Source: a virus
Taxonomy: Duplodnaviria > Caudoviricetes
Reading direction: 5' to 3' (one strand)
Virus record (IMG/VR): IMGVR_UViG_3300012002_000216
Location: 1 to 57,881 of that record
Length of the DNA stretch: 57,881 nt
Within the stretch, counting starts at the first letter, position 1; every line of letters starts with the position of its first letter. The translations under genes were made by a program, and so were the position numbers. This document shows, piece by piece, positions 9,065-50,432 of the stretch. The notes under the pieces were generated by a model. The model worked only from the letters and a program-made list of their open reading frames with translations, was not told the DNA's origin and made no database searches.

Positions 9065-9637
9065 TTAGTTTGCTTCTGCAGGGCTCTTTGGTTCCATTTT
9101 GTTGAGTAGCTCGCTATTGCGAAAGAAATAGTCGGCAGCTGACTCTAATGTATACTTACCACTACGATAGTTCTTGAGGAAGAATACACATGATTTGTGC
9201 ATCTTATAGCGATATTGTTCTTCAGTTTCCTCATCAATCAAAATAAATACATCACGCCACACAATAACGCGATCGATGCGCCACATCTTTTTATGTTGCT
9301 CGACCTTGGTAGTAGGTAGTTCATCTGCTGGGGTTCCTCGCTCAAGTAAAGCAGCTTGTTCTTCAGGTGTAAGTGGAACTTCTTCTTCAATCACTTGGAC
9401 AAGTCTCGGATAATGATTCTGTACAAGAACTTGCTTTATATTATGAATAAAGGACTTTACTGGTATAGTGAAGTCCCATGGGAAATCATATGATTGTCCA
9501 CTATTGGTATGAACTACTGTGACGCCATTGTCTGATGTCACAAAGGAAAGTAATACTGGTGCTTTCTCACAGAAATTAGAAAGCTTTTTGATTAGTTCTG
9601 CTTTATATCGTTCACTGTCAATTTTTTCATGTAGCAT
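9065..9637 (-). CDS. hypothetical protein
   Basis: 190-aa ORF, SD GGAG, tightly packed operon. Confidence 0.7.
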   Translation of the reverse strand: MLHEKIDSERYKAELIKKLSNFCEKAPVLLSFVTSDNGVTVVHTNSGQSYDFPWDFTIPVKSFIHNIKQVLVQNHYPRLVQVIEEEVPLTPEEQAALLERGTPADELPTTKVEQHKKMWRIDRVIVWRDVFILIDEETEEQYRYKMHKSCVFFLKNYRSGKYTLESAADYFFRNSELLNKMEPKSPAEAN

Positions 9638-9661
9638 TTTATGCTCCTTGATTGCTATAGC

Positions 9662-9988
9662 TTAGCTGTTGATAATTGGAAACGGAAACGCATCTTCCAT
9701 ACCTTGTAGATATGCATGCGCAAATGCGTCGACAAGTTCGTAGAATGCATCCATTTCGCGGATATAGTCGTCGACGTCCATATCCTCTTCGCGCGCTTCT
9801 GCTTCTACGTCAATGTTCATAGAGCGAAGCTTTGTTCGAATGACATGCTCAGCAGTATCCATGAATCTATCAGTAATAGAATCGCCTTGCTGTCGACCAG
9901 TTGTTTCGAAACGTTCGCGTGCTTGAACGGTGTCTTCAGGTGTAAGTCTTAACATCTGATCTGGGTCAAATAGTTCGTTTTGTGCCAT
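9662..9988 (-). CDS. acidic hypothetical protein
   Basis: 108-aa ORF with SD GAGG. Confidence 0.7.
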   Translation of the reverse strand: MAQNELFDPDQMLRLTPEDTVQARERFETTGRQQGDSITDRFMDTAEHVIRTKLRSMNIDVEAEAREEDMDVDDYIREMDAFYELVDAFAHAYLQGMEDAFPFPIINS

Positions 9989-10000
9989 TGGTTATATCCT

Positions 10001-10180
10001 CTACTCCATTATTTCTGGGAATCGACTGAGTAGATCTTCGGCAAGTTCATCAAATGCCTCATTTCCTTCGTCTCTATCCCATTCGTAATCATCAAGAAAT
10101 TCTACAACCCATTCAACGAGGGTATCCTCTTTGGATTTTAGGAATCGTCTCCAGTCATCGTTCCGTATGACATCATCCAT
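10001..10180 (-). CDS. small acidic hypothetical protein
   Basis: Start moved to ATG 10180 (MDDVIR) after AAGGA, which avoids overlap with the upstream gene. Confidence 0.6.
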   Translation of the reverse strand: MDDVIRNDDWRRFLKSKEDTLVEWVVEFLDDYEWDRDEGNEAFDELAEDLLSRFPEIME

Positions 10181-10190
10181 AATATTTTCC

Positions 10191-10487
10191 TTAAAACGGT
10201 AAAAGCATAAAGTGAAGAGCATCCTCATCACCAGACTGCGCTGCTTCACGTATTTTACTGACCCACGCATGAGTTACATCACTAACAGTCTCCATCAGTA
10301 AATCTTGCGCATCATCATCTTCTGGGTCATCTAGATTTACACCTTGCTCTTTTGCATCCTTGATAACGGCCTCTGTGAGGTGGTTAAAAATCTCATCTGG
10401 TAGTTTTCGTTGAACTTGCTCAACAATATCATCTACCTGCGGAACGTAGCCTGTTCCGTATCCAAAAAGATCGTCTTGCTCTGGCAT
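10191..10487 (-). CDS. acidic hypothetical protein
   Basis: 98-aa ORF in operon; LTEA and IREA motifs. Confidence 0.7.
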   Translation of the reverse strand: MPEQDDLFGYGTGYVPQVDDIVEQVQRKLPDEIFNHLTEAVIKDAKEQGVNLDDPEDDDAQDLLMETVSDVTHAWVSKIREAAQSGDEDALHFMLLPF

Positions 10488-10490
10488 ACT

Positions 10491-10778
10491 CTATTCCTCG
10501 CTATCCTCGGCTTGAAAATGTTCATCTACTGCTGTAATTAGTGTGTAGTAATCCTCATCTTCAGCATTGAGTGTTTGTTGACGAAGAGCTTTGTACCGTC
10601 GGTACGCTTCTGATATCTGTGTCTTTGTCGTCTCGAGATCATCAGCAAACTCTTTCAAGCGCGCCTTAGCGTCTTTCGATATTTCATTTGCTTGAGAGCG
10701 AAGATCAGCTGCCTGCTGTTCCGACTCATATACCGATTCAAAATTACCAATCACTTCTTCTTGTGTGATCTGTCGCAT
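10491..10778 (-). CDS. small helical protein, possibly T4 DsbA/GapR-like DNA-binding protein
   Basis: Start MRQIT after GGAG; pattern ..EISKDAKARLKEFADDLETTKTQISEAYRRYK. Confidence 0.4.
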   Translation of the reverse strand: MRQITQEEVIGNFESVYESEQQAADLRSQANEISKDAKARLKEFADDLETTKTQISEAYRRYKALRQQTLNAEDEDYYTLITAVDEHFQAEDSEE

Positions 10779-10821
10779 ATTATCTCCTTTGCATATTATC
10801 GGGCCGTAGCCCATTACGTCT

Positions 10822-10828
10822 AATTAGT
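10822..10828 (-). promoter_or_regulatory. ACTAATT putative late promoter
   Basis: Overlaps the primase stop codon and points to the 10778 gene. Confidence 0.6.
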
Positions 10829-11858
10829 GGAATACTCGTCTTGAACTAGGAACTGGATTTCTTCCCCAGCCTCTGCGTCGTAAGTTTTCAACAGTTGTAC
10901 GTAGCACGGTCGGTATGTCCCCAATATCTTTTATATCTTGTAGACGCGGTACGTCCAATATTTCGAAGGGTCTGTCTAACTCTTCTATCAATTTGCGCGT
11001 GGTATTACGTCCTGCTTTATCATTATCTGGTATTAGAACAAGATGGTCGTATTGGTTCAAAAGCCACAGTTGTCTACGTGTTACTTGAGCACCAAAGATC
11101 GCAGTACTGTTAGCAAAGTAAGGATCAGTCCGCAATACTGCTAGATCAAATAATCCTTCTACTACATAGAGTGGTTTTTCTGGATTTATATTATCTAGAT
11201 CATAAAGCGTATTGACCGAAGAGTCTTTCGGGTATAAAACCTTTCTCGATTGATTCCCGGTAACGTCTCGACCCTCTACTGATATTAGATTACCGTTATC
11301 GTAGATAGGTATAAGAAGCCTCTTGCGATAAACAGTCCCGTTTATGCGACCAGATTCCATATAGGCCATTTGCATACTATCTGCTACATCAAACGTAACA
11401 CCTCTACGTCGTAGGTAGCGAACGGCATCTGCCGATTCACGAACATTGACGACAGGACTTTGAATGGTGATGGATATCTCACGATCTAACTTAGAGTGGT
11501 CTTCTGCTTCAGGCGCATACGCAGTATGCTTAGCAAATCGAGAAAATTCATCAGTAGGAATATTAAGATCTTTATAGAGACTATTACCTGTAAGATCATG
11601 ATATAGAGATGCAATGGTACCCTTAGCACCACACGAGAAGCAATTATATACTCCTTTCTCTACATGTACAAACATTGAGGGGTTTTTATCTTCATGAAAT
11701 GGGCAATGACATGGAACATCCCCAGACCAGTTACCCTCACTCCACGCTGATCTGATCTGCAGTCGCTTCATTGCTTCTCGTGTCATTTCTTCTGTAGACA
11801 GTTCAGGGGAAGCAAGAGGTGCAGCCATAAGGATATTGCCAAACTTAAATGCGTCCAT
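10824..11858 (-). CDS. dnaG: DnaG-type DNA primase
   Basis: CHC2 zinc finger CPFHEDKNPS...CFSC; TOPRIM VVEGLFD and PDNDKAG. Confidence 0.9.
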   Translation of the reverse strand: MDAFKFGNILMAAPLASPELSTEEMTREAMKRLQIRSAWSEGNWSGDVPCHCPFHEDKNPSMFVHVEKGVYNCFSCGAKGTIASLYHDLTGNSLYKDLNIPTDEFSRFAKHTAYAPEAEDHSKLDREISITIQSPVVNVRESADAVRYLRRRGVTFDVADSMQMAYMESGRINGTVYRKRLLIPIYDNGNLISVEGRDVTGNQSRKVLYPKDSSVNTLYDLDNINPEKPLYVVEGLFDLAVLRTDPYFANSTAIFGAQVTRRQLWLLNQYDHLVLIPDNDKAGRNTTRKLIEELDRPFEILDVPRLQDIKDIGDIPTVLRTTVENLRRRGWGRNPVPSSRRVFH

Positions 11859-11886
11859 TTTACGCGCTCCTTAGATTGACAATATA

Positions 11887-12363
11887 CTATCTCTTTCTAT
11901 GCTTCTTCCCGTTCGGAAAAATCGAGACACCGCGGCGCTTATCGCGTGAGATATCCTCTTCTTGTGGATCTTCAAAAAACGGAAGGTCAAGTTCAGCATG
12001 CGCAAGATGCTCGGCTGGATTTACTGTATCTCCCTCGCGTTCACGTTCCTTTTGTGGTGTATGATATTGTGAGTCACGATTCATGATCTCTCTAATATTT
12101 CGAATATCGTCATCACCAGATATCGCGACTCGTGAGATTGCAGAATTTTGTCTATCTAACACCCAGAATGTACCATATGTACTGAGCGTCTCTCGCACTG
12201 CATACTCTATTTGATACCCAACAGTCTCTACGATAAGATCTATAAATGCTTGGTGCTTCATTACCACCAACGAATTATCACCATCGATATATAGTCGCAC
12301 ATTCTCTCGTTGTGGATTAGATGCATATATAAGAAAATAAAAATGCTTGTAAGCCTGATCCAT
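11887..12363 (-). CDS. hypothetical protein
   Basis: 158-aa ORF downstream of an ACTAATT motif. Confidence 0.65.
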   Translation of the reverse strand: MDQAYKHFYFLIYASNPQRENVRLYIDGDNSLVVMKHQAFIDLIVETVGYQIEYAVRETLSTYGTFWVLDRQNSAISRVAISGDDDIRNIREIMNRDSQYHTPQKEREREGDTVNPAEHLAHAELDLPFFEDPQEEDISRDKRRGVSIFPNGKKHRKR

Positions 12364-12555: not shown

Positions 12556-14649
12556 ATGGGATTCGCATTTGGTGGCTTGAGTGTTCAAGCTTCAAAAAAG
12601 ACACTTCAAGCAGACTTGATAGATGAGCCGTTGCTTATCGAACATACGACGGATAGCTCTAAGCATCCATACTTTCTAATCTTGCTTGATGAATACTACT
12701 CTCCCCAGAAGCTCAAGAAAATAGAGAAACTTCTTAAATTGAATGGTATTGCAAACTACCGTGCAGTTGTCTCTGTCAATGTCAATATCAAAAAAGATGA
12801 TCTAAAGGACGGAATCGGTCAGCATTATCGAACGAATCAATCGCGATGGAAGCAGTATGTAGAAGGAGCGAAAGCAGTGATCGCGGTGGGTCCAGCCTTG
12901 TACTCGATCAACCAATCGACCGACATACTAGTGGATCATTTTCGTGATATTGTCTTTAACAAATCGTACTATTGGTCGCCAGATACGGGAACCTACGTGT
13001 TTCCGGTTGATAGCTTTAACGATATTTTTGTGCCATTAGCACAAAAGAATACAGGAATGTTCCAGCCATCGCAACCTGCTCCAGTTACTGACGCCCCAGC
13101 GAATACATATCGTACGCATTTCACGGAGTATCAATTGGGGTTGGCACAGAAGCTTCAGCTTACTAAGCAGCGTAAAATTGAGCCTGAGCTTGTCAAGATT
13201 GAAACCACTGAAGACTTCCTGATTGTTTGTAGAAATCATCATGGGGCAGAGAAGATGGCTTGGGACTTAGAGACTAGTGGCTTCGATTTTATGACCGATC
13301 GCATTGGCTGTATTACGATGTCCTTTGATGGTAGAACAGGGTATTATGTTCCTTGGGAAATTGTAGATAGAGCGGCATTGAACGATTTATTGGCATCAGT
13401 GGGAACGCAAATTGGAGCGAACCTAAAGTTTGATGTTCGCTTTCTGTGGCGTAACGGAATACCAGCAGCGCATATTGATACCGATACAGTTCAGCTTGGC
13501 CATGTGCTGAATGAGCAACGATCCAACAGTCTAAAAGCACATGCATTCTTCTATACGCAATATGGTGGGTATGACAGAGACCTAGATCGTTACATCGAAA
13601 AAACTGGTATCGATGACTATACAGCGATCCCTGAGCATATAATGATTCATTATGCAGCGATGGATGCGGTAGTCACATGGCTGGTGCATGAAGCATTACA
13701 GCGTCAACTAGATTGGGTGGATACGCAATATCCGAACGAGAAGATGCTAGATTGGACTATGCGTCGGTATTATGAAGAAGTGATGATGCCAGCGGTAAAT
13801 ACGTTTGCTGAAATTGAGTATCGTGGGGTATATACCGATAAAGAGCATCTTGCAAATTCACGTGAGTATATCCAATCTGAAATCAGTCGTATTGAAAATG
13901 AATTGCGCGCCCTTTGGGGTGTGGATGATTCGTTCGATTTTAACTCTACTAAGCGTTTGGGTGAACTATTTGAGCAACTGGGTTGGGAGGATCTGGGGCG
14001 ATCCAAGACAGATGTATACCAGACCTCTGACGCGCATCTCTCTAAGTGGGCAAAGATGGGCCATGAGGGTGTAGCTGAGTTTCAGCGACTACGATCCCTT
14101 AAAACAATTCTTGGAACATTCATTTCAGCTACTGAAGATTCAAAGAAGGGGTGGGCTCAATATCTACGAGAGCATGAAGAAGATGAATCGCACAGGATGC
14201 ATCCAACCTTCAATGTGATGAGAACTGAGTCGGGAAGATGTAGGTGTTCGAACCCGAATATGCAAAATGTCCCGTCTCATGGAGAGTTTGCAAAGCTTGT
14301 GAAGTCATGTATTACGACTCCTGATCCGTCTGACTACTACCTCTCAACTGTTGACTATGCATCGCTACAGATTCGGCTTGCAGCTATTGATACTAATCTG
14401 AATGAAGACGGTCGCGATCAAGCGTTATATAACGTCTATACAGACCCTAAGATGGGCGGAGACATGCATAGTCGAACAGCGTATGGGGTATTTGCTCATG
14501 GTCGGGACTTCAGCTTAGATGTGGTAGAAGTGGAAGACAGCAAAACTGGGAAACAGCACACATTCTATGCAGACGAGTGGATACAGACAGAGCGAGGCAG
14601 TATTCAAGCCAAAGCTCTAATGGAAGATGACGTACTACTAATTGAATGA
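12556..14649 (+). CDS. family A DNA polymerase, N-terminal fragment (UDG-like region, 3'-5' exonuclease, polymerase domain up to motif A) ending in a Hint/intein-like tail
   Basis: ExoI WDLETSG, ExoII NLKFD, ExoIII YAAMDA; TESGR..SNPNMQNVP; motif A VDYASLQIRLAA; GDMHSRTA; motifs B and C absent; SD GGAGG. Confidence 0.9.
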   Translation: MGFAFGGLSVQASKKTLQADLIDEPLLIEHTTDSSKHPYFLILLDEYYSPQKLKKIEKLLKLNGIANYRAVVSVNVNIKKDDLKDGIGQHYRTNQSRWKQYVEGAKAVIAVGPALYSINQSTDILVDHFRDIVFNKSYYWSPDTGTYVFPVDSFNDIFVPLAQKNTGMFQPSQPAPVTDAPANTYRTHFTEYQLGLAQKLQLTKQRKIEPELVKIETTEDFLIVCRNHHGAEKMAWDLETSGFDFMTDRIGCITMSFDGRTGYYVPWEIVDRAALNDLLASVGTQIGANLKFDVRFLWRNGIPAAHIDTDTVQLGHVLNEQRSNSLKAHAFFYTQYGGYDRDLDRYIEKTGIDDYTAIPEHIMIHYAAMDAVVTWLVHEALQRQLDWVDTQYPNEKMLDWTMRRYYEEVMMPAVNTFAEIEYRGVYTDKEHLANSREYIQSEISRIENELRALWGVDDSFDFNSTKRLGELFEQLGWEDLGRSKTDVYQTSDAHLSKWAKMGHEGVAEFQRLRSLKTILGTFISATEDSKKGWAQYLREHEEDESHRMHPTFNVMRTESGRCRCSNPNMQNVPSHGEFAKLVKSCITTPDPSDYYLSTVDYASLQIRLAAIDTNLNEDGRDQALYNVYTDPKMGGDMHSRTAYGVFAHGRDFSLDVVEVEDSKTGKQHTFYADEWIQTERGSIQAKALMEDDVLLIE

Positions 14650-14664
14650 GGTATAAATTGTATA

Positions 14665-15060
14665 ATGGAAGAAAAACAAGTTCTACTTGTAGATGACTCC
14701 ATCTCTCTTCATACGATGATTGAGATGTTTCTACGACAAAATGACAATCCTCATTACCAGCTATTCTCTGTTGTATCTGCACATGAGATGTTCTCGTACC
14801 TAGATCAACAAGCGATTAGTATAGTCTTGCTCGATATCGGATTATCAGACGGAAATGGGCTGCTATTGACCAAAACGATCAAGCAAACACATCCAGAGAT
14901 TGCGGTTGTTATTATAACGGCGAAGCTGGGAGATGAGCACGCGCAAGCGGCGCTTGAAGCTGGAGCCACAGACTTTCTTTCGAAGCCGTTTGATGGACAG
15001 AGTCTGCTTCAATGCCTTAATAGAATATCCTCATCACATAATACACCATCGAGGATATAA
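14665..15060 (+). CDS. stand-alone CheY-like response regulator receiver
   Basis: VLLVDDS, IVLLDIGL.DGNGL (phosphoacceptor Asp), IITA, GATDFLSKPF. Confidence 0.92.
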   Translation: MEEKQVLLVDDSISLHTMIEMFLRQNDNPHYQLFSVVSAHEMFSYLDQQAISIVLLDIGLSDGNGLLLTKTIKQTHPEIAVVIITAKLGDEHAQAALEAGATDFLSKPFDGQSLLQCLNRISSSHNTPSRI

Positions 15061-16232
15061 TGGGTGTGTCATCCTTACATGAGTCCTCTTCGATAAAACT
15101 AGAACAACATCTGTTTTTAGTTGGCGCACTGTTTTACCCATTGTGGAGTCTTTTTCTAGCGATAGCAGTACCTACAGCGTATGATATAGCTAGCGGTAGA
15201 ATCGCAGTGGGGGTTTTTGGTCTTTGTTTATTACTATTAACCTATCGATTTGAGTGGGCACACCAAAGAACAGCTCTACTCAAATATCTATATGTATACG
15301 TAGGTACTGCGCAATTTGCTTCGCTCATCTATTTATCAAATGGATCAACAATCTACGCAATAGGAAACATTATTTTTAGCGCTGCGGTTTCAATGCTCTT
15401 CACGAAACCTCGCCCGTATGCTATATTTACTACGTATTGGATCCTCTTAAACATACTTGCAATCAGCCATACACCGATGTCACCTGATCATGTAGCGATG
15501 GTGTTTGGTGGTATACTTACGACACACTTTGTTATAGGCTATCTGCTTTATTCTAGAACAAAAGCCTTAATGCAGGTGGTAGAGCAACAAACTCGTGCAG
15601 ATGCACTACAGCGACAGATTTTAACACAAGAGTTGGAAAAGGCGAAAGAGTCCGCCGAAATGCTACGCAAAAGAGCCTATTACGATTTTCTGACTGGTCT
15701 AGCGAATCGCGCGATGTTTAGGGATACACTAAATCGTCAATTCGCAGCTGCTAGACGTACAGGATCTACCCTTGGCATTTTATTTATTGATCTAGATGGT
15801 TTCAAAGCTATAAACGATTCTCGAGGTCACGATGTTGGTGATTCATTATTGAAAGAGTTCGCCGTGCGTCTTGATCGATCATTAAGACAAGAAGATCTAG
15901 CAGCCCGAATTGGCGGTGATGAGTTTGCAGCGATACTATCAGAAATAAGTGACCCTCAGGATCCTGAGGTTATATGTAATCGCATTCTTGAAGAGGTGAG
16001 TACTCCGATCAAAGTTGGTGTGTATGAGTGTAAGATTGGAGCGAGCATTGGTCTTGCAATAACTCCACGTGCAGGTCAAGACCCAACAGAACAAATTCAT
16101 GATCCAGTAGATCTCATAAAGCAGGCTGATATCGCAATGTATGTTGCAAAGGAATCTGGAAAAAATGGATGGGTAAGCTACTCAGAAGAGCTAGCTTACT
16201 TGAATGCAAAGTCTTTCAGAAAGACTATCTAA
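15060..16232 (+). CDS. membrane-anchored diguanylate cyclase (GGDEF)
   Basis: About 5-6 hydrophobic N-terminal helices, coiled coil, YDFLTGLANR, FIDLDGFKAIND.GH.VGD, RQED I-site, RIGGDEF, ADIAMY.AK..GKN. Confidence 0.93.
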   Translation: MGVSSLHESSSIKLEQHLFLVGALFYPLWSLFLAIAVPTAYDIASGRIAVGVFGLCLLLLTYRFEWAHQRTALLKYLYVYVGTAQFASLIYLSNGSTIYAIGNIIFSAAVSMLFTKPRPYAIFTTYWILLNILAISHTPMSPDHVAMVFGGILTTHFVIGYLLYSRTKALMQVVEQQTRADALQRQILTQELEKAKESAEMLRKRAYYDFLTGLANRAMFRDTLNRQFAAARRTGSTLGILFIDLDGFKAINDSRGHDVGDSLLKEFAVRLDRSLRQEDLAARIGGDEFAAILSEISDPQDPEVICNRILEEVSTPIKVGVYECKIGASIGLAITPRAGQDPTEQIHDPVDLIKQADIAMYVAKESGKNGWVSYSEELAYLNAKSFRKTI

Positions 16233-31182: not shown

Positions 31183-34100
31183 ATGGCATATACATCTAGT
31201 TCTGAATTCGATCATGTAAAACGAATTCAAATAACAAATGAAGTTCCTCCTGTATCCTTGTTCTATCTGCTCCCGCAAGGTCTCCAAAATGAATTTTGGA
31301 AATATGTGATAGGCACAGCAGATACTCAACATAACATACCAGTCATAGATAACGAGAATCGACCCAAGAAAATTGTGAACGGGGATGAGTCCCCTATCTA
31401 TGGTCCGGTAGTACCTGAAACGCCCCCTACTTTTGAAGACGCAGAGGAATATCATAACATCACCATTGAAGGCACTATTGAGCCTGAGCTCGACTTCATG
31501 CTTCATGAAATGTACCGATATCTGGATACTATGTACCCAGATCATCCAGACTATCTTGAGCTTTTAACGAGCTTGGAAATGAATGAGATGTTTCGAGCAG
31601 CTGCAGCTGTGATAGGGTATGAACCAAACTATACGTTTATAGAAGACTGGAGCCGCTCTATCAATGGGCAGCGAATGCAGACTGAGGAAGTGAAATGGAA
31701 GATTCGTGATCTACGCTCTCTAGCGTTTCGTCGTAAGTTTTTTGGAGCATATCTAGGCTATAAGATGATCTGTAGCTCGTTGCTTCGACATGGATCCATT
31801 TATATCACAGGTAAGTATCGTCCATTGATTAACGGCGATGAAGCCACCATTGATTATGAAGATTTTCGTGCGAATCGTAGATTTCGTTTAATAGACTTCT
31901 TCAACACAAACGATACAGTCTATCAAGAAAACACACGAGTCACATTCAAAGGTCTTATAACTCCCAATTATCGTACACATGTGTACCATTACGCGTATCA
32001 AGACACATCAATAGTAGCTGACGGGGCCCTTGGGCGGGTCTCTGTAAACACTTTTCTTTCAAACGATACGATCAATCTTCCTACACCAAACGTTACGGTT
32101 ACGTCTAAGAAGGTAGGGAGCACAGCTTCTAATCAATACCACTTTTTAGAGATGTCGGGAAGTCAATACCCTACATTACGAACATATTCAATTCGAGATC
32201 TCAGTGATCCACAAGATGAAAGCCTAGAACGAAGAAAAATAGAACTGACACCATCTCCGTTTGCAGATGGAATTTTTGATTTTCCTCTACATGAAGCCTT
32301 ATCCGTCTATCCTGATCAGACTATTATACGCGACAATATCGATCTTATTGGTTTTAGTGGTAGCCTAGATGTTAATACAGCTGCTCTTTGTGATACGTAC
32401 AATGAGGGTGTCCGCACCTATACCGATTGTGCCAATATACTCCACCTAACTCGTGGGGAAATAACACTCAATATAAACGCAGATCGGTCTCCAATTCTCA
32501 ACGCTCTACCAGATCCAGATTATCCTCTATATGGGATTGAGTTTCAAGTTCGTCGCTTTGAGCAAAATCTTGATGGCACTATGCAACCCATAACGTCATC
32601 TATTTTTATTCAGTGTACTCTTACCTTTACTAGAGATAGACGTAATCGACCAACTAGTGCAACTGCACGTATTGTCACAATTCCTCATATCCATCCGCTT
32701 ACCGGCGAATCAAACGATCGTGAGTACCTTCTTGATCCAGATCAGATTGCACGCGTGACATCGGGCACACAGGCTTACTTCCTATCATATAGCGAGCAGA
32801 ATGCAGAATGGAGCTATATGATTGGATATGAAGGGTGGACCCAAAGTGTCAGCTGGGCCTGTATTCATACAGAAGAGCTAATGTATCAAGATGTACCTGT
32901 AAATGCTGCTTTTACAGTAGAGTCGTTTGAACGTTGGAAGCTACGAGCCGCTCATGACTTCTCTTCTGAAGCTGTGGTTCTAGACGAATTGCAAATATAC
33001 GGTCGAATAGAGAGTCAGCTACCTGGTACTATTTTGGTTCCGAATGAGGAAGAGAGCAAGAAGCTTCCATTGCTTACTCCAGGAGATGAAATTCGAGGTC
33101 CAGGACTTCCCCTCAATACCATGGTTACATATGTAGCTACAGATTATTTTGAGGTCTCACAAGACGCTCTTTTGTTCGGGCTCTCTGAATTTTCAATCGT
33201 GTTACGACAGTCGCAAGTGGTAGAAGATACGTTACTAGATGATTTCAAGCGCCAGGTGTATAATTTACATCCTGATACAGATCATTCTATTTATACTGCT
33301 ATGTGGCCTTCCCCTAAGTGGCCCCGAGTTAGCTCAGCATACCTTGAAGGTCTTAAAGATGCCTCGCTCTTTCAACCGCTAGCTGTTGAAAAAGTCACCA
33401 ATGATCCAGCAGCTATTGAATTTGATAAGACAGTCTTTTTAGAGCTTTCGTTAGACAGAGTATTACGACATGTCAATAGCGTTAAGTTTAAGATGGGACC
33501 ACGATACGTTTCTCTTATGGATAAAGCGTGGCTGGATTATGTAGAGAATTTTCTCTCACACGCTGCACGTGCTACCGAAATTGTACAGCTAGGAACGCAG
33601 CTCACATTAACAACTGATGAATCAGGACTATATACCATCATCCCGGAAAACCAGTATTCTGATCCTGACATTAACGCTCGCTTTACTATACTTCCAAACC
33701 CGTATGAAAATGATGAAACACCCACTCACCTCCAGTTAGGGACAGGCGGGCATACGGCCGAGCGCGAACGGCTCTTTACATCAATCTCTGACTTGAATCG
33801 TCCTCCTCTTTATGGTGTTACGACATTTGACTCAAATAGAGATCTATCCTCAGATTTAGAGAGGATTGAGCCTGTTCGTCGTGGTACATATGCTTCTGCA
33901 AAGAACATAGGGGACGGGTATGATGATAATATTGCCTCTATTGCCAATCTTGATAGCCCACTTTTTGAAGTACCACTCGGTGAGCATGAGTATGCTGTAG
34001 ATGTTGCGTCAGAAGAGCGTCCAGGGAATCGTTATAAGATTGTAACAACATCCGTATATGAAGAAGAGTTTAACGATATTGAAAAAGAAGACACGTTAAT

Positions 34101-37100
34101 TGTAAACTCACCATATATTGCAACTGGAGAGCAACTACCTAGAGAACTATACAGATTCAGAGGACGTTGGAACCCCGCACCTCAAGCAGAGAATCGCTTC
34201 ATACCTATTTGGCCTAAGGAAGACCCTAATAATCCGTTTGTCAATCGAGATTACTTTCTCGTCTCTGCAACTAACACAGTGGGGACCTACGAGTACGAAG
34301 AGGGCGACTGGTTAGTATACAATGACGGGGAATGGACTCGTCGACAATGGCTATTGCTAGGAACGTGGCCGCCCGACGGTGAACCCGAACCGGATAACGG
34401 TATTTATCTATCACCTTCCAAAACACAGCTCCAAACTGACATTGCACCTCTAGGGCTTACGATCTCTGAAGCTTTAGATAAGTACTTTATGTATTATATT
34501 GCTTCTAAGGATCTCGAGCTTAGGGACAAAACACCGGAAGGTGAACCTACAAAAACTATTGATGTAGCTATAGATGACTGGATTATTCTGACTAAAGAAA
34601 CATATGTTGATGAGAGTGCAAACAGGTTTATAGTGAGAGATGAAACAGGAGATGAGTATTACTTAATCTCGTTGCCACCTGGTCAACAGCAAGGAAACTG
34701 GACACCAGTTGAAGATTCAAATAATCCTTCGCAACCTGACTATCCAGATACTACTGGTCTCAGTCATAATGACTATTTTTATATAACAGAAGATAAAACT
34801 ATCGGAGGAGACACATTCCGAGAAGGCGATTATATACAAGTTGTCATTGATAGTCAAAATAACATAACCTGGCGTATTGCTGAAGCGTTCTTTTTGACTT
34901 GGACGGAGTACCAACCCTGGCTCGTAGCGGGTGGTCGAACATATGAAATTATTCGTCAATCTTTCCAACGGACCAATCTTTTAGATAATACTACGTTTCA
35001 AAAGTTCGTAGACCAACGAGAGCTTCTAATAGATAATACACAGCAGATTCTCGATCTACCTAGAGAATTTTTGGCACGTGGGTCCTGCAATTTTGAGCTC
35101 AAAATCGATCCAGAGTTTTATGCTACAGATGCAAATGGTGTACGATTCTCCTTAACTGCAAGTCCTATTTACCGTGATCAAACGGCTAATCGCTTCTATG
35201 TACACAATCAAACCGCAGATGGATCTACAACACGGCACGATATTGAGTTTAAGGATCCCACATACTTCAAAAATCTATATTCGCTTGTAGGAACAGTTTT
35301 TGCTGACACCCCAACAGAAATACACACTTACCCAGATTATGAGTTTAACGCTCAAGCACTATCGTTAACAGATAGCGTGAAATCTGGAAACTATATTTTC
35401 ATACGAAATGAGTATGAAGAAGCTCTAGAAAATCGGTACTACTCCCACTACATAACTATAGAGGGAGAAGTCAATCCCGATAATCTTTATCAAATTCGAC
35501 CAATAACCGACAGTCCTCGCGCTGACGATCGTGTCGAAGACTTTCGATTAAGTGTCTTAGGTATCCAACCCGTCGAAGCAGACGATGGGTCGATAGCAGC
35601 TAGATCAACAGTAAAAACCGCCTCTCCTGCGATCATTAGATCATACGAAGATCGATTTGAAAACAGATTCTTTCGTAATCTTCTTATGGTAGCTGGTACA
35701 GTAAAGAGAGATACTCCGAACATGATACTTCCATGGGGAGATGATCAAGAATCTCTACGAGCTTTTGCAGAAGCATTAGCTGAACTAAACCCTGGAGATT
35801 ATATTCAAGGAGTCTATCTTACAAATGGAACTACATATAGGTTATCGCAAAATGTTCTAACTCAAAATGATCAGCAAATCAATGTTATTCGGTGGGGCCC
35901 AGGCTCTTGGCTAGCAGCGGGTACTGAAGGCACATTGTTGATGAATTATTCAGATACTGTCGATGAGCCTTGGGAAACAAAGTCATTACCAACTGGTAGT
36001 AACCCCTCTATTGATGATACCTGGGATCCCATTGATGCAGTTAATGATGCTGTTTATTCACAAAATATCCAATCGTGGTGGATAGTGGGTGAAAGTGGCA
36101 ATATTGCACGATCGTATGACGATGGTGAGAACTGGCACATGGTTGCAGGACCTGAAGAATGGAACGGTATAGACCCATCAATAACTTGTATCGAATACTC
36201 TAACCCGCTCAACGATACTAACGTTGCCAATCGTCTTCTTATTGGTACAGATGATGGTCGCATAGCATATTTTGATGAAGATGCAGACGAGAACGATCTT
36301 ACTGCAGCCCAAGAGTGGACACCATTGCCTTTGCCAATTGAAGGGCAACTTGACACAGAAGGATTCGATCCAAATGCTGACGGTACAGGACAAAACGAAG
36401 ATGACGAAGAAGGCTCATTTGACGACGCCCCACCCGTGACTGAGGGTTGGGGTAATAATGCTGTTCAAGCTATTGGGTATAACGACATAACCGATACATG
36501 GATGATAGGTGGAAGTAATGGTAAACTAGCTGTTACAGATACATTACTAGATCCTGTACAAGATTCAGACCCCGATACTGACGATGACGATCTACCGAAA
36601 TCTCAATGGACTATGCTAGGTTTGCCAGATGGGTTAACCTTATATAATATTACCGCAATACGTTGTGTTGATGGTATGTGGGTGGTCGCCGGGGAGTATC
36701 AGCAACTAGGAGCTATTATATACTCTGATGATGATGGTGTCTCATGGTCGATTGCCCAGTTAAAAGACCAAAACGATGACGACGATGATTTCGGTCCAAT
36801 TTTTGAAATAGAGTGGAAGCCAGGAGAGTGGATAGCTACTTCAGAGGATGGAGTTGTATATACATCAGCATATAATGAAACCAACGCAGGTCGACCCTTT
36901 TCGGAGGCATTGCCGGAATGGACATATAAAGACATTCCTAGCATTCCTGACATGAAGATTCTTGGTGTAGGAGTAGCAGCTGATACGGTTCTTCTTGGTG
37001 GCGATGATGCAAATATCTATATAATATCTAATAATTCTCGTCCTGCTGATGCTCTGCAAATTCAGGAAGTCAATGAAGATGAGAGTATTTTCAATATTGT

Positions 37101-39555
37101 GACTGAAGCACCTGTTGTAGTGCCTGATGACTGGGAGGAATCGCTTGAGCTTCGTTGTCTGCTTCAAATCTATACGCTTAGATCTATTGAAGATAGCTAT
37201 GCAGGAGTTCCTGCAGACGCCATATCGACACTTACGAATCCGCGAACTCGTGAATTATATCTTCCAAGTACGTCAGAAGTAGAAGATGCCGACATAGCTA
37301 ATCGTGTATATATGCCACGAATGAACCCATTTCTACTAGAGCCTACGATAGGGAATGGAGATGAGAACCCAGATTATATCGGAGGAAATGGATATCCAAC
37401 CTTTGAGGAATCTGAAGATGCTTACGTCACTGGTGGAGCAGGAAATCCAGAACTCTGGACGAACGACAGCGGTTTGACACTTCATCATTGTGATATTGCT
37501 GGTAATTATATTGATGCGCGAGGAGTAGCTCTAGGAACAAATAGCTTCACCGAGCAAGTAGTAGTTGAAGACGAAGACACTGATCAAGATACGCGAACAG
37601 ATAGGGTCGATCCAAGGGAAGTCGCTTGGCAACCACTTTACACAACATATCTAGAGTGGTTAGAAGATGGTAATGATATTGAGATCTCAGATGATGTTAT
37701 TGACCTAACTGGGCTAGGTCCTATAGAAGTTGCTAATACGTATAATGAACAAAATGAAACTCCTTGGATTGAGACTACACTCTCTGTCACCTTAGATCCT
37801 CCGTACAATGGTATTAGTCTCAACATCCTACCAGCAAGTCCAGTAGCGATACCTCTACGAGGTATACCACGGTACCGAACAGACATGTCTGGAACAAACA
37901 TGGGTATAGTAGCTCAGATTCAAAATAATGAAGTACTATACTCAATCGAACCACTTGAAAACAACACAGCTTTAATTGAGACACGAGGGGATAATGAAGG
38001 TGTTGAATTTGAGAGCGGGCTTCCTGACGGGCTATATTCGATAGAGCCTGTCGCAGCATTGCCAGACTCCTTTGTTACTGACGAAGGGTTGGTAATTGAG
38101 GAAACGAGGGATGGTAAAACGTACTATACCGTTGATGACCCGGAGCTAACTGGTGTTTATTATCATCCTAATGGGTACGGTTCTTGGGCTGATCGACCCG
38201 CTACTAATGGTCTATGGCCATGGGAAAACGACCCCAATGCGTTTGTAGGTGAAGACACGGATAACGATGGCTTAAATGATCAGTTCTACTATCTACAAAA
38301 TAAACGGCACGATGTTATATATGTAGTAGATAGAATGGGCGAACGCGTAGTAGATGAGAACGGTGATTTTATACCATCTCCTGCGCCAAAGCACTTGTCA
38401 TATGCAGATCTGCTAGCCGTAGAGGGCGATTTTGCTGAGAAAGAGAATATTACGTTTTCACCAGATCAAGAGATCTCCATTACAGGTGTACGACAAAACG
38501 GGCGAGCTTTTGAAGTATCAAATCCCATTCCTATGGAAGAAGGAGCATTTGTACGACAGGTACGGTTGAACTTACTTACATTAGCATCAATCCCAACTAC
38601 CGAACGCTCGAAAACAGATGAACGTCTTGTATATAAGCTCACTCCACAAGATCTATTACGGTATGAACCAGATAGAGTGTATTATGGGGATTCAGCATAT
38701 CCTTCTCAAATAGAAGATCCAACACTCTATCAGGGTGGATTGTTCACAAATCGAAATGGAGCGCCAGTATTCCGAGCAAATTCTGAAGGAAGCTATCTTG
38801 ATGTAAATGACGAAGCTACATTAGATCTTTCTGCACGAACACGTACAGCTCAGCCTCTTTATTATCTGTGTCAAGACTGGTTTCAAGAAGAGTATTTCGT
38901 AGAAGGTGATGAAGATAATCCATACTGGCAATACATCATCTTTGAAGACTACTTAGATAATCGCTCCAAAGAATGGCGCCAGCGCTATACGACATATCGT
39001 CGGGTAAAGGGAGATGCTGGTCAAGAGATGGTACTACAAAAGGTGCCAGACGAAGATGCATATGTAACTCTATATCCAGGGTTAGAGTATTCGAGTGATA
39101 GAGAGTCACTAATCGTTCGCCAAACAGACTATATTCAATATCGTCGTGGGCGCATTGCTGCAGTTATGGTATCTAATCGACGGTATTCACGTGAAGAATA
39201 CCCTAATGTTGATCAAGAGAATGCACAATATGGTCTTTACTATGATTCTGTCTTTCATGAAGCTACCGACCTAGAGGGCAATGACATTGACATGTTTGAT
39301 CTGGATGAGGTAGTACAGACTGAGCTTAAGGGTAATTGGAAGCTCAACTATTCCGTCAATACAACGAAGAATTTCGCTAATCCACTAGACTCGCAATCAT
39401 CCATTGTAGCTATTACAGAACTTGGTCTCTTTAACGCAGCTCATGAAATGATTGCATATGCAAACTTTCCACCAGTTATCTATGACTCTGCTAAACATCA
39501 TATGTCAGTGAACTTGCTTATTAAGCAAGGAGAGTTTACACCTGTCAATGACTAA
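31183..39555 (+). CDS. giant baseplate wedge/fibre protein (gp7-like N-terminus, beta-propeller, tail-collar-fibre-like C-terminus)
   Basis: 2790 aa after gp6; Asp-box motifs RSYDDGENW and YSDDDGVSW; G.W..P...GD[WY] repeats; C-terminal ITELGLFN...MIAYANFPP. Confidence 0.65.
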   Translation: MAYTSSSEFDHVKRIQITNEVPPVSLFYLLPQGLQNEFWKYVIGTADTQHNIPVIDNENRPKKIVNGDESPIYGPVVPETPPTFEDAEEYHNITIEGTIEPELDFMLHEMYRYLDTMYPDHPDYLELLTSLEMNEMFRAAAAVIGYEPNYTFIEDWSRSINGQRMQTEEVKWKIRDLRSLAFRRKFFGAYLGYKMICSSLLRHGSIYITGKYRPLINGDEATIDYEDFRANRRFRLIDFFNTNDTVYQENTRVTFKGLITPNYRTHVYHYAYQDTSIVADGALGRVSVNTFLSNDTINLPTPNVTVTSKKVGSTASNQYHFLEMSGSQYPTLRTYSIRDLSDPQDESLERRKIELTPSPFADGIFDFPLHEALSVYPDQTIIRDNIDLIGFSGSLDVNTAALCDTYNEGVRTYTDCANILHLTRGEITLNINADRSPILNALPDPDYPLYGIEFQVRRFEQNLDGTMQPITSSIFIQCTLTFTRDRRNRPTSATARIVTIPHIHPLTGESNDREYLLDPDQIARVTSGTQAYFLSYSEQNAEWSYMIGYEGWTQSVSWACIHTEELMYQDVPVNAAFTVESFERWKLRAAHDFSSEAVVLDELQIYGRIESQLPGTILVPNEEESKKLPLLTPGDEIRGPGLPLNTMVTYVATDYFEVSQDALLFGLSEFSIVLRQSQVVEDTLLDDFKRQVYNLHPDTDHSIYTAMWPSPKWPRVSSAYLEGLKDASLFQPLAVEKVTNDPAAIEFDKTVFLELSLDRVLRHVNSVKFKMGPRYVSLMDKAWLDYVENFLSHAARATEIVQLGTQLTLTTDESGLYTIIPENQYSDPDINARFTILPNPYENDETPTHLQLGTGGHTAERERLFTSISDLNRPPLYGVTTFDSNRDLSSDLERIEPVRRGTYASAKNIGDGYDDNIASIANLDSPLFEVPLGEHEYAVDVASEERPGNRYKIVTTSVYEEEFNDIEKEDTLIVNSPYIATGEQLPRELYRFRGRWNPAPQAENRFIPIWPKEDPNNPFVNRDYFLVSATNTVGTYEYEEGDWLVYNDGEWTRRQWLLLGTWPPDGEPEPDNGIYLSPSKTQLQTDIAPLGLTISEALDKYFMYYIASKDLELRDKTPEGEPTKTIDVAIDDWIILTKETYVDESANRFIVRDETGDEYYLISLPPGQQQGNWTPVEDSNNPSQPDYPDTTGLSHNDYFYITEDKTIGGDTFREGDYIQVVIDSQNNITWRIAEAFFLTWTEYQPWLVAGGRTYEIIRQSFQRTNLLDNTTFQKFVDQRELLIDNTQQILDLPREFLARGSCNFELKIDPEFYATDANGVRFSLTASPIYRDQTANRFYVHNQTADGSTTRHDIEFKDPTYFKNLYSLVGTVFADTPTEIHTYPDYEFNAQALSLTDSVKSGNYIFIRNEYEEALENRYYSHYITIEGEVNPDNLYQIRPITDSPRADDRVEDFRLSVLGIQPVEADDGSIAARSTVKTASPAIIRSYEDRFENRFFRNLLMVAGTVKRDTPNMILPWGDDQESLRAFAEALAELNPGDYIQGVYLTNGTTYRLSQNVLTQNDQQINVIRWGPGSWLAAGTEGTLLMNYSDTVDEPWETKSLPTGSNPSIDDTWDPIDAVNDAVYSQNIQSWWIVGESGNIARSYDDGENWHMVAGPEEWNGIDPSITCIEYSNPLNDTNVANRLLIGTDDGRIAYFDEDADENDLTAAQEWTPLPLPIEGQLDTEGFDPNADGTGQNEDDEEGSFDDAPPVTEGWGNNAVQAIGYNDITDTWMIGGSNGKLAVTDTLLDPVQDSDPDTDDDDLPKSQWTMLGLPDGLTLYNITAIRCVDGMWVVAGEYQQLGAIIYSDDDGVSWSIAQLKDQNDDDDDFGPIFEIEWKPGEWIATSEDGVVYTSAYNETNAGRPFSEALPEWTYKDIPSIPDMKILGVGVAADTVLLGGDDANIYIISNNSRPADALQIQEVNEDESIFNIVTEAPVVVPDDWEESLELRCLLQIYTLRSIEDSYAGVPADAISTLTNPRTRELYLPSTSEVEDADIANRVYMPRMNPFLLEPTIGNGDENPDYIGGNGYPTFEESEDAYVTGGAGNPELWTNDSGLTLHHCDIAGNYIDARGVALGTNSFTEQVVVEDEDTDQDTRTDRVDPREVAWQPLYTTYLEWLEDGNDIEISDDVIDLTGLGPIEVANTYNEQNETPWIETTLSVTLDPPYNGISLNILPASPVAIPLRGIPRYRTDMSGTNMGIVAQIQNNEVLYSIEPLENNTALIETRGDNEGVEFESGLPDGLYSIEPVAALPDSFVTDEGLVIEETRDGKTYYTVDDPELTGVYYHPNGYGSWADRPATNGLWPWENDPNAFVGEDTDNDGLNDQFYYLQNKRHDVIYVVDRMGERVVDENGDFIPSPAPKHLSYADLLAVEGDFAEKENITFSPDQEISITGVRQNGRAFEVSNPIPMEEGAFVRQVRLNLLTLASIPTTERSKTDERLVYKLTPQDLLRYEPDRVYYGDSAYPSQIEDPTLYQGGLFTNRNGAPVFRANSEGSYLDVNDEATLDLSARTRTAQPLYYLCQDWFQEEYFVEGDEDNPYWQYIIFEDYLDNRSKEWRQRYTTYRRVKGDAGQEMVLQKVPDEDAYVTLYPGLEYSSDRESLIVRQTDYIQYRRGRIAAVMVSNRRYSREEYPNVDQENAQYGLYYDSVFHEATDLEGNDIDMFDLDEVVQTELKGNWKLNYSVNTTKNFANPLDSQSSIVAITELGLFNAAHEMIAYANFPPVIYDSAKHHMSVNLLIKQGEFTPVND

Positions 39556-48736: not shown

Positions 48737-48803
48737 TGTTTACATTCACGAATCGTAACAGTATACTAATAAGGCATATACATCTAGGAACATGAGGAGC
48801 TAT

Positions 48804-50432
48804 ATGAAAGAGTTGAAATATTCATCCGATGTGCGGCGACGGCTTTTCGTCGGTGTTGAAAAACTATCACAAGCGGTAGCCGTTACGCTCGGACCGAAGG
48901 GACGTAATGTGCTTATTGAGCGCGGGTTCGGCTCACCGTTGATGACCAAGGATGGGGTCACTGTTGCGAAAGAAGTGAAACTGTCCGATAAATATGAAAA
49001 TCTTGGTGTGCAGACAATCAAGGAAGCCGCTACCCGTACAAATGAGACTGCTGGTGATGGAACTACTACCGCTACAGTTCTTGCACATGGTATCATTGCC
49101 GAAGGGCTTAAGCTGGTAGAGGCTGGTCATGACCCTATGGAGCTTCGTCGCGGTATCGATGCTGCCATGTCCTATGCAATTGATAGTCTAGATACTATCA
49201 CACGTCCTGTTCGTGATCGTGATGACCTATTGCACATTGCTACTATCTCAGCTAACAGTGATACTGAAATAGGAGAGCACATTGCTGACGCATTTACAGC
49301 AATCGGTAAAGACGGTGTTGTAACTGTTGAAGAGTCGCGAGGGTTTGATACATATATAAATTACCTTGAAGGTATGCAGTTTGATAAGGGGTATCTTTCT
49401 CCGTACTTTGCTAACACAGATACCTTTACTGTTGAATATGATAATCCATATATTCTTCTTTCAGATCAACCCATTGTAAACGCTCAAGCCCTAGCAGGGT
49501 TATTAGAAACCGTACGACGACAGCAGAGAGGTCTTGTTCTTATTGCCCGTGATGTATCAGGAGATGCACTTACAGCTCTTGTTGTAAACAACTCACGAGG
49601 AATCATTCAAGCAGCAGCTGTTCGTGCCCCGTCCTTTGGTGATCGTCAGCGATTGATGCTAGAAGACTTGGCAATTTTGCTCGGTGGAGAAATTATCGGG
49701 CAGCATACTGGTCTTGAGTTGAGTGATGTAAAGATTGAAAATCTTGGTTCATGTGATAAGATTAAGATCACTTCACAAGAAACGATTATCATCAATGGTC
49801 ATGGAGAGAAAGAAGCGATTGATGAACGTATTGCTCTTCTACGTACAAACATCGAAGAAGAACGATCGCCCTTTCTCAAAGAACAGCATCAAGAGCGCCT
49901 TTCAAAGCTTTCAGGTGGTGTAGCAATATTACATGTTGGTGGGTCTACTGAGGTAGAGCTCATGGAACGAAAATATAGGGTTGAGGACGCTCTATCCGCT
50001 ACACGAGCAGCTATTGAAACTGGTGTTGTGCCCGGTGGTGGAGTAGCACTGTTGCGAATTGCTGAAGAGCTAGCTGCTGCCGATATAAATGGCTACTCAA
50101 GCACATATCAAGCCGGGTTTGATATTGTGCAACTTGCCATGAAGTACCCATTGCGACGAATTGCGTCCAACGCAGGTACCTCAGCGGATGTTATCATTGA
50201 TAAGATCTTAACCAAAGAAGAGTTCGGGTATGGATGGGACGCTAAAAATGGCGTCTTTGGTTATATGTATGATATGGGTATTATTGACCCAGCTAAGGTC
50301 GCTGTATCAGCAATTCGTAATGCTTGTTCTGTTGCAGGAACGTTTCTAACTACAGAGTGCGCTATTGTAGACGTATCTAATATCACAGTCACGTCTAACA
50401 ACGAACTTCCGTTGTCAGATATGGGAATGTAG
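48804..50432 (+). CDS. groEL: chaperonin GroEL (phage-encoded)
   Basis: VTLGPKGRNV, TKDGVTVAKE, AGDGTTTATVLA, EGMQFDKGY.SPYF, RVEDAL.ATRAA, VVPGGG, GIIDP.KV; ATG 48804 after GAGGAG. Confidence 0.97.
   Translation: MKELKYSSDVRRRLFVGVEKLSQAVAVTLGPKGRNVLIERGFGSPLMTKDGVTVAKEVKLSDKYENLGVQTIKEAATRTNETAGDGTTTATVLAHGIIAEGLKLVEAGHDPMELRRGIDAAMSYAIDSLDTITRPVRDRDDLLHIATISANSDTEIGEHIADAFTAIGKDGVVTVEESRGFDTYINYLEGMQFDKGYLSPYFANTDTFTVEYDNPYILLSDQPIVNAQALAGLLETVRRQQRGLVLIARDVSGDALTALVVNNSRGIIQAAAVRAPSFGDRQRLMLEDLAILLGGEIIGQHTGLELSDVKIENLGSCDKIKITSQETIIINGHGEKEAIDERIALLRTNIEEERSPFLKEQHQERLSKLSGGVAILHVGGSTEVELMERKYRVEDALSATRAAIETGVVPGGGVALLRIAEELAAADINGYSSTYQAGFDIVQLAMKYPLRRIASNAGTSADVIIDKILTKEEFGYGWDAKNGVFGYMYDMGIIDPAKVAVSAIRNACSVAGTFLTTECAIVDVSNITVTSNNELPLSDMGM

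Follow-up and report, generated by a model that had tools for sequence, protein, structure and literature searches.

A probably two-gene family A DNA polymerase of jumbo phages whose N-terminal subunit appears to end in a splicing-dead half-intein remnant

Split inteins are thought to survive by repairing, through splicing, the genes that they break. We report a computational analysis of a phage DNA polymerase gene in which part of such an element seems to have been retained without its chemistry. The gene lies in a stretch of viral DNA of 57,881 bases, the whole of IMG/VR record IMGVR_UViG_3300012002_000216 (hereafter the window), which is rated 18% complete, so that the genome should be roughly 300 kb; genes for a tail tube, baseplate, primase, SbcCD, sigma factor and GroEL, recognized with PHROGs, assign it to a myovirus-like jumbo phage. 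The encoded protein of 697 residues comprises the N-terminal part of a family A DNA polymerase and ends in an acidic tail of 50 residues. Two conclusions are drawn with high and similar confidence: that the enzyme is split and encoded by two genes, and that the tail is derived from the Hint fold of inteins. The complete scheme, in which a dead half-intein tail helps to dock the two subunits of the polymerase, is in our judgment moderately probable.

The open reading frame contains ...GDMHSRTAYGVF... and its C-terminus reads ...VVEVEDSKTGKQHTFYADEWIQTERGSIQAKALMEDDVLLIE, followed directly by the stop codon. A preliminary description of this gene correctly reported a full exonuclease domain and motif A ahead of the tail and the stop: the exonuclease family PF01612 is matched over profile positions 3-173 of 173, and the polymerase family PF00476 over positions 2-197 of 381, with 85.2 bits against a cut-off of 34.3. 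Motifs B (the O helix, R..K..F/Y) and C (HD) are not found in the protein, in which the PF00476 match ends at profile position 197. They were also said to be in no open reading frame of the window, and this holds, since PF00476 matches the 57,881-base record only once (E ≤ 10) and the C-halves of two relatives gave no tblastn match in it at E ≤ 1e-3. The unrelated gene that had been placed 15 nucleotides after the stop is likewise present and encodes a response regulator (PF00072). In relatives, motifs B and C sit in a separate protein, and the open reading frame of the window is therefore one subunit and not a whole polymerase.

The preliminary description had allowed that no C-terminal half might exist, and the related records speak against this. 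When the whole records of 10 related viruses were searched with PF00476, six yielded a separate open reading frame of 270-320 residues bearing motif B (R..K..F..FG) and motif C (HDS). The two halves occur together in each of the two records with a completeness of at least 96%, and the four records lacking a C-half are 15-37% complete. A search with the C-terminal region of P0057, an unsplit relative, brought up 29 C-half proteins of 224-351 residues, and the C-half of relative G001 retrieved 31 more; in the C-half alignment, R32, K36, F40, F44 and G45 of motif B and H203, D204 and S205 of motif C are invariant. C-half P0164 is on a contig of 274,414 bases, as is N-half P0004, which is 82% identical to that of the window, and C-half P0153 is on a contig of 292,485 bases, as is N-half P0008, which is 67% identical. 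Cultured phages include no close relative of the window; megablast against phages gave no match at the DNA level, and a search of viral contigs with the single protein of the window gave no match. By tblastn, 1,729 records were matched, all at less than 60% identity and none over 80% of the query, with every match stopping at or before query residue 669.

A protein search listed 120 homologues among 150 at E ≤ 0.001, and these were classed by their ends. An alignable tail is present at the same site in the fingers in 89, and nine have a look-alike tail where motif A should begin. Two others (P0112 and P0115) carry genuine split-intein N fragments of ~102 residues with Cys1 and TP[DE]H. The unsplit homologues number six with a beta-rich insert at the fingers loop and 14 that are insert-free. 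Hint-like sequence therefore terminates 100 of the 100 split N-pieces in this set.

The genomic distance between the two halves varies widely among the relatives. They are 12 nucleotides apart in L009, where the C-half is upstream of the N-half in a permuted order (9104-12124), and ~3.5 kb apart in G002, where a SegE-like GIY-YIG gene (PF19835, E 3.8e-6) stands between them. The separation is ~33 kb in G006 and G007, ~83 kb in G010, with the halves on opposite strands, and ~208 kb in G001. Loci L002-L004 keep the order primase, 158-residue open reading frame, N-half, response regulator and two more open reading frames; in G001, homologues of the primase and of the 158-residue open reading frame (L087 and L089) are found directly upstream of the C-half and not of the N-half. 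This difference in gene order fits an ancestral adjacent pair that was separated later.

The position of the break is evident from insert-free unsplit relatives, which read ..DxHSxTAxxxF..(E/D)-(I/M)T(L/V)EEF...R..AK..NF without interruption. In the split enzymes, the N-half tail and the C-half head are therefore additions, located between the DxHSxTA helix and the motif B-bearing O helix; in the naming of the Klenow fragment, the helices flanking the break would be N and O. How this material is arranged is indicated by P0057, a relative that is naturally in one piece (alignment A8, inspected by eye). Its AlphaFold model, with a mean predicted local distance difference test score (pLDDT) of 91.2 and a predicted template modelling score (pTM) of 0.88, has in order a helix at 647-657, strands at 661-669, 674-676, 680-683 and 687-690, a short helix at 696-699, a strand at 702-710 and a helix at 713-718, all at pLDDT 90-96. 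The strand at 702-710 is the counterpart of the C-half head, and the five strands of residues 661-710, head strand included, form one small domain in the model. In a FastTree phylogeny of 114 N-regions, a quick and unrooted tree from which the fragments P0014, P0031, P0033, P0051, P0096 and P0098 were left out, P0057 and P0071 lie deep in a split clade of 79 rows (support 98), each as sister to a different split protein (P0049, support 97, and P0070, support 100). Judged by this placement, one-piece P0057 and P0071 look like two independent re-fusions and not ancestors, and both keep the whole module in frame. Different beta-rich inserts, 45-90 residues long, occupy this loop in four further unsplit proteins (P0093, P0104, P0106 and P0119).

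Four independent lines of evidence connect the tail to inteins. Pfam finds nothing in the 50 residues after DMHSRTAYGVFA, and in the whole N-half P0001 it reports PF00476 and PF01612 and no intein or Hint family. The tail is nonetheless conserved across sequences that are just 30-40% identical overall, its Asp being invariant and its Gly, Ala and Leu near-invariant; in the 30-sequence alignment A1, T678, G681, L688 and D692 are invariant. The Hint similarity proposed in the preliminary description was borne out by profile and by predicted structure alike. An hhalign comparison of 89 tails with five split-intein N fragments from ribonucleotide reductases (RNR), which have Cys1 and CTP[DE]H and match Pfam Intein_splicing below its curated cut-off, gave a probability of 97.3%, an E-value of 2.6e-11 and a score of 54.8, against 10.9 for the reversed profile and 8.3±1.3 (maximum 11.2) for 30 column shuffles. 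Tail positions 8-52 align to intein positions 57-99 of 100. Compared with five inteins resident in relatives of this polymerase, the tails scored 36.3 (probability 91%), against 9.6±1.9 (maximum 13.7) for 40 shuffles. The second tail type, at the break before motif A, scored 54.8 against these resident inteins and 51.6 against the first tail type. Additionally, the tail profile had 12 matches at E ≤ 10 among the sequences of solved structures. The best was 9hth_A (E 0.0035), named only 'DNA-directed DNA polymerase', a chain of 173 residues that is probably an intein, given its TADH and VYDIEV; the NrdJ-1 intein 8ubs_A followed (E 0.0077, residues 63-106), so that inteins would take the top two places. 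Two TFIIB mini-inteins were also matched, at E 0.58 and 2.3.

Against 1.84 billion representative sequences, the tail profile gave 174 matches at E ≤ 0.001, and 40 whose length or match position was unlike the 690-residue family were scanned with Pfam. These comprised 15 PolA pieces, 12 RNR proteins with Pfam intein/Hint families, two PolB proteins with a Pfam intein, two Hint-only proteins, five DnaE and three PolB N-pieces that have 45-65 extra C-terminal residues without a Pfam Hint match, and one protein without any Pfam match. Pfam Hint or intein families were thus present in 16 of the 40, overlapping the tail match in about 10 (split RNR N-pieces included) and not in the other six. Most split RNR N-pieces show such an overlap, with the Pfam intein match stopping at profile position 92-93 of 155. 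At their C-termini, genuine N fragments read ..CTPDHK(V/I)FTKNRGYVEAKDLVETDELVIS, polymerase tails read, for example, ..FLGGQIINTVNRGEIFASELVEEDTLAI, and the tail of the window ends ..FYADEWIQTERGSIQAKALMEDDVLLIE. Tails of five DnaE pieces (P0232, P0237, P0244, P0297 and P0307), three PolB pieces (P0207, P0254 and P0302) and two RNR pieces (P0252 and P0299) match the polymerase-tail profile at E ≤ 1e-4. By eye, the short DnaE, PolB and RNR tails have no Cys1 or TxxH.

Structure prediction led to the same fold. Folded alone from a 41-row alignment, the window tail gave a four-stranded model with pLDDT 89.9 and pTM 0.66. With Foldseek, intein chains made up nine of the ten best rows, at E 1.3-3.6, and nothing was matched at E ≤ 0.001. 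With VIA-align against 48,161 representative chains, 30 had Z ≥ 2, of which 24 are Hint folds; the first 19 ranks are taken without exception by inteins or the hedgehog Hint domain, the best at Z 5.1 and 5.0, and NrdJ-1 is matched at Z 4.2 with a root-mean-square deviation of 2.2 Å over 47 residues. The aligned ranges reach the natural ends of N fragments: 47-97 of 101 in Npu DnaE, 59-107 in NrdJ-1 and 38-87 in gp41-1. The model seems to hold about a third of the Hint fold, matching the second half of intein N-terminal regions, and the remainder is absent.

Although descended from an intein, the tail appears from its sequence to have none of the features that define a catalytic one. In the block nomenclature of PMC6892783, it covers blocks B and N4 alone. 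Block A, with its Cys, Ser or Thr at intein position 1, and block N2 have no counterpart, and nothing of block A lies between ..GVFA and the tail. The absence of block A and of the TxxH histidine, noted in the preliminary description, is thereby upheld: the window reads FYADEW where genuine inteins read CTPDHK, so that the block-B Thr is replaced by Tyr and the His by Glu, a correspondence on which hhalign and hmmsearch agree. The C-half begins M-x(0-2)-K-I-[TSK]-[KR]-x-x-x-x-[RK]-x-I-T, ~13 residues after which polymerase sequence follows (..R.IT.EEF), and in the C-halves of relatives there are no blocks F or G, no terminal Asn or Gln, no +1 Cys, Ser or Thr and no HN-like motif. Tail and head together amount to ~60 residues, and a functional split intein on both broken ends is not found; there is only a dead, partial remnant on the N side. 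Lacking block A and blocks F and G, and with its block-B residues changed, the pair cannot splice, as far as sequence can tell. Tail and head are oppositely charged. The tails have a mean charge of -4.2 and are negative in 81 of 89 cases, and the heads, picked by a narrow pattern from the 60 C-half proteins fetched, have a mean of +3.2 and are positive in 32 of 32.

We propose the following scheme. Besides its N-terminal domain, the N-subunit would contribute the 3'-5' exonuclease, thumb, palm (with motif A) and first helices of the fingers. Its gene would be interrupted in the loop that leads from the DxHSxTA helix to the O helix, and a further gene at another place in the genome would supply motifs B and C on a second subunit of ~270-320 residues. 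Most likely an intein or a homing-endonuclease element was the cause of this break, and the halves would have drifted apart in the genome later. The last 50 residues would be what is left of the N fragment of an NrdJ-1-like split intein, namely its second half only, four beta strands running to the split site, the first half with the Cys1 nucleophile having been lost. In the DnaE split inteins, the corresponding part of the N fragment is the first to associate with the C fragment, electrostatically, which would make the remnant the 'capture' half of the intein fold. The acidic tail and the basic head strand of the C-subunit (~13 residues, M-L-K-I-x-[KR]-x...) may come together at the fingertip as a single small beta domain that would aid the non-covalent assembly of the two chains, rebuilding the fingers and the active site. 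Of the two-subunit polymerase with a non-splicing docking remnant that the preliminary description put forward, the two genes are supported and the loss of splicing is favored, and docking keeps the standing of a proposal.

A number of observations weigh against this scheme. The window's own C-half was not seen in the 57,881-base record, which is a fragment. Pfam scans of single tails matched Hint families (PF14890, PF07591, PF01079 and PF13403) in none of 41 cases at E ≤ 10, the motif V.R.G..I.A.DL..D.L also matches the actuator domains of P-type ATPases over 23 columns at E 0.08-0.2, and the absolute fold scores are modest, the best VIA-align Z being 5.1 and every Foldseek E-value at least 1.3. 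A modest Z is to be expected of 50 residues, and the weight of the model-based comparison is in the enrichment for Hint folds. The Hint origin is demonstrated for the tail only and not for the head: a profile of 43 heads had an hhalign probability of 0.1% against inteins, and the two re-fused insertions, aligned as a pair, had a probability of 1.3% and met a different region of the intein. No tool gave an interface between tail and head, and a complex prediction of the tail (residues 662-709 of the G002 N-half) with its cognate C-half, run without controls, returned interaction prediction scores from aligned errors (ipSAE) of 0.01 and 0.01, which favor neither binding nor its absence. Retention of the module in the two re-fused enzymes means that it may serve a different purpose or be carried along as ballast. 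Finally, in the fragmented RNR of Aeromonas phage Aeh1, heterodimer formation itself is reported not to have required the tails at the break (PMC3045599), a precedent suggesting that tails of this kind could serve in other steps of assembly.

The leading rival explanation, which we nevertheless consider unlikely, is that the tail is a genuine Hint relic but a functionally neutral scar, the chains assembling via the ordinary interface of fingers and palm. Docking is needless in the two independently re-fused enzymes that have the module in frame, the head is without intein signal, the Aeh1 tails could be dispensed with for heterodimer formation, and a Pfu polymerase engineered as a split enzyme, with its split near the fingertip, is reported to be still active (PMC3061061). 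A neutral scar would, however, be expected to decay or vanish. Instead, all 100 split N-pieces among the listed homologues have the module, with three distinct break sites between them; conservation of the tail extends to sequences with as little as 30-40% overall identity, and the opposite charges of tail and head are conserved as well.

We regard as improbable a second explanation, in which the tail, instead of holding the halves together, has taken on a different function at the fingertip, for example regulation of the enzyme or contact with a replisome partner. The predicted tail is a small beta domain that seems to fold autonomously, the re-fused enzymes retain the module, and four unsplit relatives have other beta-rich inserts at this loop, all of which could be so understood. 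No result indicates a partner, however, and the module tracks splitting: 14 unsplit relatives are without it, and it or a look-alike is in all the split pieces. Short tails of the same kind also end split DnaE, PolB and RNR pieces, which fits a role associated with breaks better than one specific to this polymerase.

Trans-splicing by an atypical active split intein, with the partner supplying the catalytic residues, had been offered as an alternative in the preliminary description and is now very unlikely. Split inteins are common in phage replication genes (PMC2677866), and P0112 and P0115 show that genuine ones occur in relatives of this very polymerase. The present tail, however, lacks block A, its junction with the extein is without a conserved Cys, Ser or Thr, Tyr and Glu occupy the block-B Thr and His positions, and the partner contributes a head of only ~13 residues with neither block F nor block G, terminal Asn or +1 nucleophile; moreover, natural re-fused proteins hold the whole module in frame. 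Least credible of all is a truncated pseudogene or assembly artefact, as the lack of motifs B and C in the window and the unrelated gene 15 nucleotides on might suggest, given that 89 of the 120 listed homologues, drawn from many independent assemblies, share this end point and tail, that the gene order around the N-half is conserved in L002-L004 and that complete relatives have separate C-halves.

Beyond this polymerase, tails of 45-65 residues without a Pfam-detectable Hint domain are found at two family A break sites, in the five DnaE and three PolB N-pieces among the 40 scanned proteins and, by eye, in two or three RNR pieces. We advance only tentatively, as a possibility falling short of probable, that a miniaturized, dead NrdJ-1-like half-intein has persisted, and may have spread, as a portable clasp that joins fractured phage replication enzymes non-covalently, simple docking through the 'capture' half of the intein having replaced splicing in many lineages.

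A sister group of family A polymerases (P0107-P0109, P0113, P0114, P0116-P0118 and P0120) has the dead tail exactly at the site of the motif A Asp. Four of these proteins (P0113, P0116, P0117 and P0118) also carry an intact mini-intein at PNWQQ/C, and some polymerases of this group may be made of three pieces. A search of viral contigs with P0113 for the partner of this second tail type, in which the break precedes motif A, gave no match.

The features of the gene and of its surroundings are collected in Table 1. In the N-terminal domain, F3, F5, G6, L43, D45 and other residues are invariant in alignment A1 (30 sequences), and its counterpart in the P0057 model is a confident alpha/beta domain. 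Motif A, which in family A polymerases carries a catalytic Asp, reads VDYASLQIR in the N-half of the window. The Gln of DYASLQIR (residue 605, window positions 14365-14367) is invariant in 30 close homologues. At this position Klenow-type enzymes have the 'steric gate' Glu, and the substitution might bear on sugar selectivity.

Table 1. Location of the polymerase gene, its parts and other features in the window
Feature	Position	Strand	Remarks
N-terminal subunit gene of the two-gene family A DNA polymerase (probable)	12556..14649	+	697 aa, TGA stop
N-terminal ~200-residue domain, family-conserved	12556..13155	+	no Pfam match in residues 1-213
3'-5' exonuclease domain, aa 214-386	13195..13713	+	PF01612 (DNA_pol_A_exo1), E 1.8e-13
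Polymerase domain, first half, aa 430-648: thumb, palm with motif A, first fingers helices	13843..14499	+	PF00476 (DNA_pol_A), E 5.7e-24
Motif A VDYASLQIRLAA, aa 599-610, with presumed catalytic Asp	14350..14385	+	D600, S603, L604, Q605 and R607 invariant in A1
DMHSRTAYGVFA helix, aa 636-647, final canonical polymerase element ahead of the break	14461..14496	+	corresponds to helix 647-657 of the P0057 model
50-residue acidic tail, aa 648-697, probable splicing-dead half-Hint remnant, blocks B and N4 to the split site	14497..14646	+	hhalign, structure-profile search, predicted fold
TGA stop and 15-nt spacer with GAGG and TATAAT	14647..14664	+	next gene in the same frame
Response-regulator receiver and GGDEF protein genes	14665-16232	+	131 aa, PF00072, E 8e-23; 390 aa, PF00990, E 5e-45
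ORF (open reading frame) beside baseplate and tail-fibre genes	31183-39555	+	2,790 aa, without PHROG match
tRNA, anticodon CUA (amber suppressor, labelled tRNA-Pyl)	47531-47606	+	ARAGORN
GroEL homologue	48792-50432	+	phrog_5725, E 3e-156

The receiver gene that follows the N-half is at the same place in L002-L004. The GGDEF protein encoded after it has a hydrophobic N-terminal half and an intact GGDEF domain with an RIGGDEF motif, and it may be a phage-borne synthase of cyclic di-GMP; among the relatives fetched, none was found to have its gene. These being the next genes, there is no homing endonuclease beside the N-half of the window. The receiver open reading frame is in frame with the polymerase piece, with only the TGA and five sense codons between them (14647-14667), and read-through would fuse both; nothing points to such read-through. 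Elsewhere in the window, the stop codons of the 43 open reading frames taken as genes are TAA in 24, TAG in 13 and TGA in six, and some late read-through or recoding by the tRNA with anticodon CUA is conceivable. Amber read-through of the N-half by this tRNA was considered and rejected, its stop codon being TGA.

If the docking scheme is correct, the replicative polymerase of a large, widespread jumbo-phage group depends on an intein remnant that has lost all its chemistry and keeps only the fragment-finding part of the fold. The arrangement would represent a natural halfway stage from repair by inteins to ordinary enzymes of two subunits, and would mark one route from selfish elements to new protein-protein interfaces. 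The acidic tail of ~45 residues and the basic strand of ~13 would also offer protein engineering a very small natural heterodimerization pair. For annotation, 'truncated' polymerases of 690 residues should not be called pseudogenes, as the gene for the ~270-residue partner may lie anywhere in the genome.

A search of the full-text literature, subscription journals and supplements aside, found no description of a natural splicing-dead intein remnant at a split polymerase. Among known systems, the nearest are the NrdJ-1, gp41-1 and similar split inteins and the fractured genes that Dassa et al. 2009 described (PMC2677866), with which the present case shares an essential replication enzyme made from two genes and an N-piece that ends in homologous sequence up to the same split site. 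Like the fractured genes, relative G002 has a GIY-YIG endonuclease gene between its halves, and the model of Dassa et al. foresees both endonuclease loss and the genomic uncoupling of the halves (PMC2677866). In contrast to split inteins, only the second half of the N fragment remains here, the splicing residues and blocks A, F and G are gone, and no ligation would take place. In contrast to the fractured genes, the N-half of the window has no adjacent endonuclease and its C-half is not within reach; family A polymerase is not among the fractured enzyme types in the passages of Dassa et al. concerned (PMC2677866).

A second parallel is the RNR of phage Aeh1, encoded as NrdA-a / mobE / NrdA-b and fragmented by the insertion of a mobile endonuclease (Crona et al. 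2010, PMC3045599). There, too, an essential enzyme split by a mobile element is restored without RNA or protein splicing and has extra C- and N-terminal tails at the break, which arose with the endonuclease insertion, and those tails are reported to be needed for activity and to act as protein interaction domains (PMC3045599). They are not described as intein-derived in the abstract of that work; here, the tail would be a remnant of the Hint fold found in many lineages and at several break sites. Finally, phage replicative polymerases of two polypeptides are known from family B, in the split gp43 of T4-like phages (PMC2677866), the split polymerase of a chimallivirus (PMC13648687) and the PolB of MIJ3, where a split intein with blocks A, N2, B, N4, F and G is accompanied by an HNH gene (PMC6892783). 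The enzyme described here belongs to family A instead, and MIJ3 represents the intact arrangement: its intein is complete and presumably splices, whereas the polymerase of the window retains blocks B and N4 only, in an apparently dead form.

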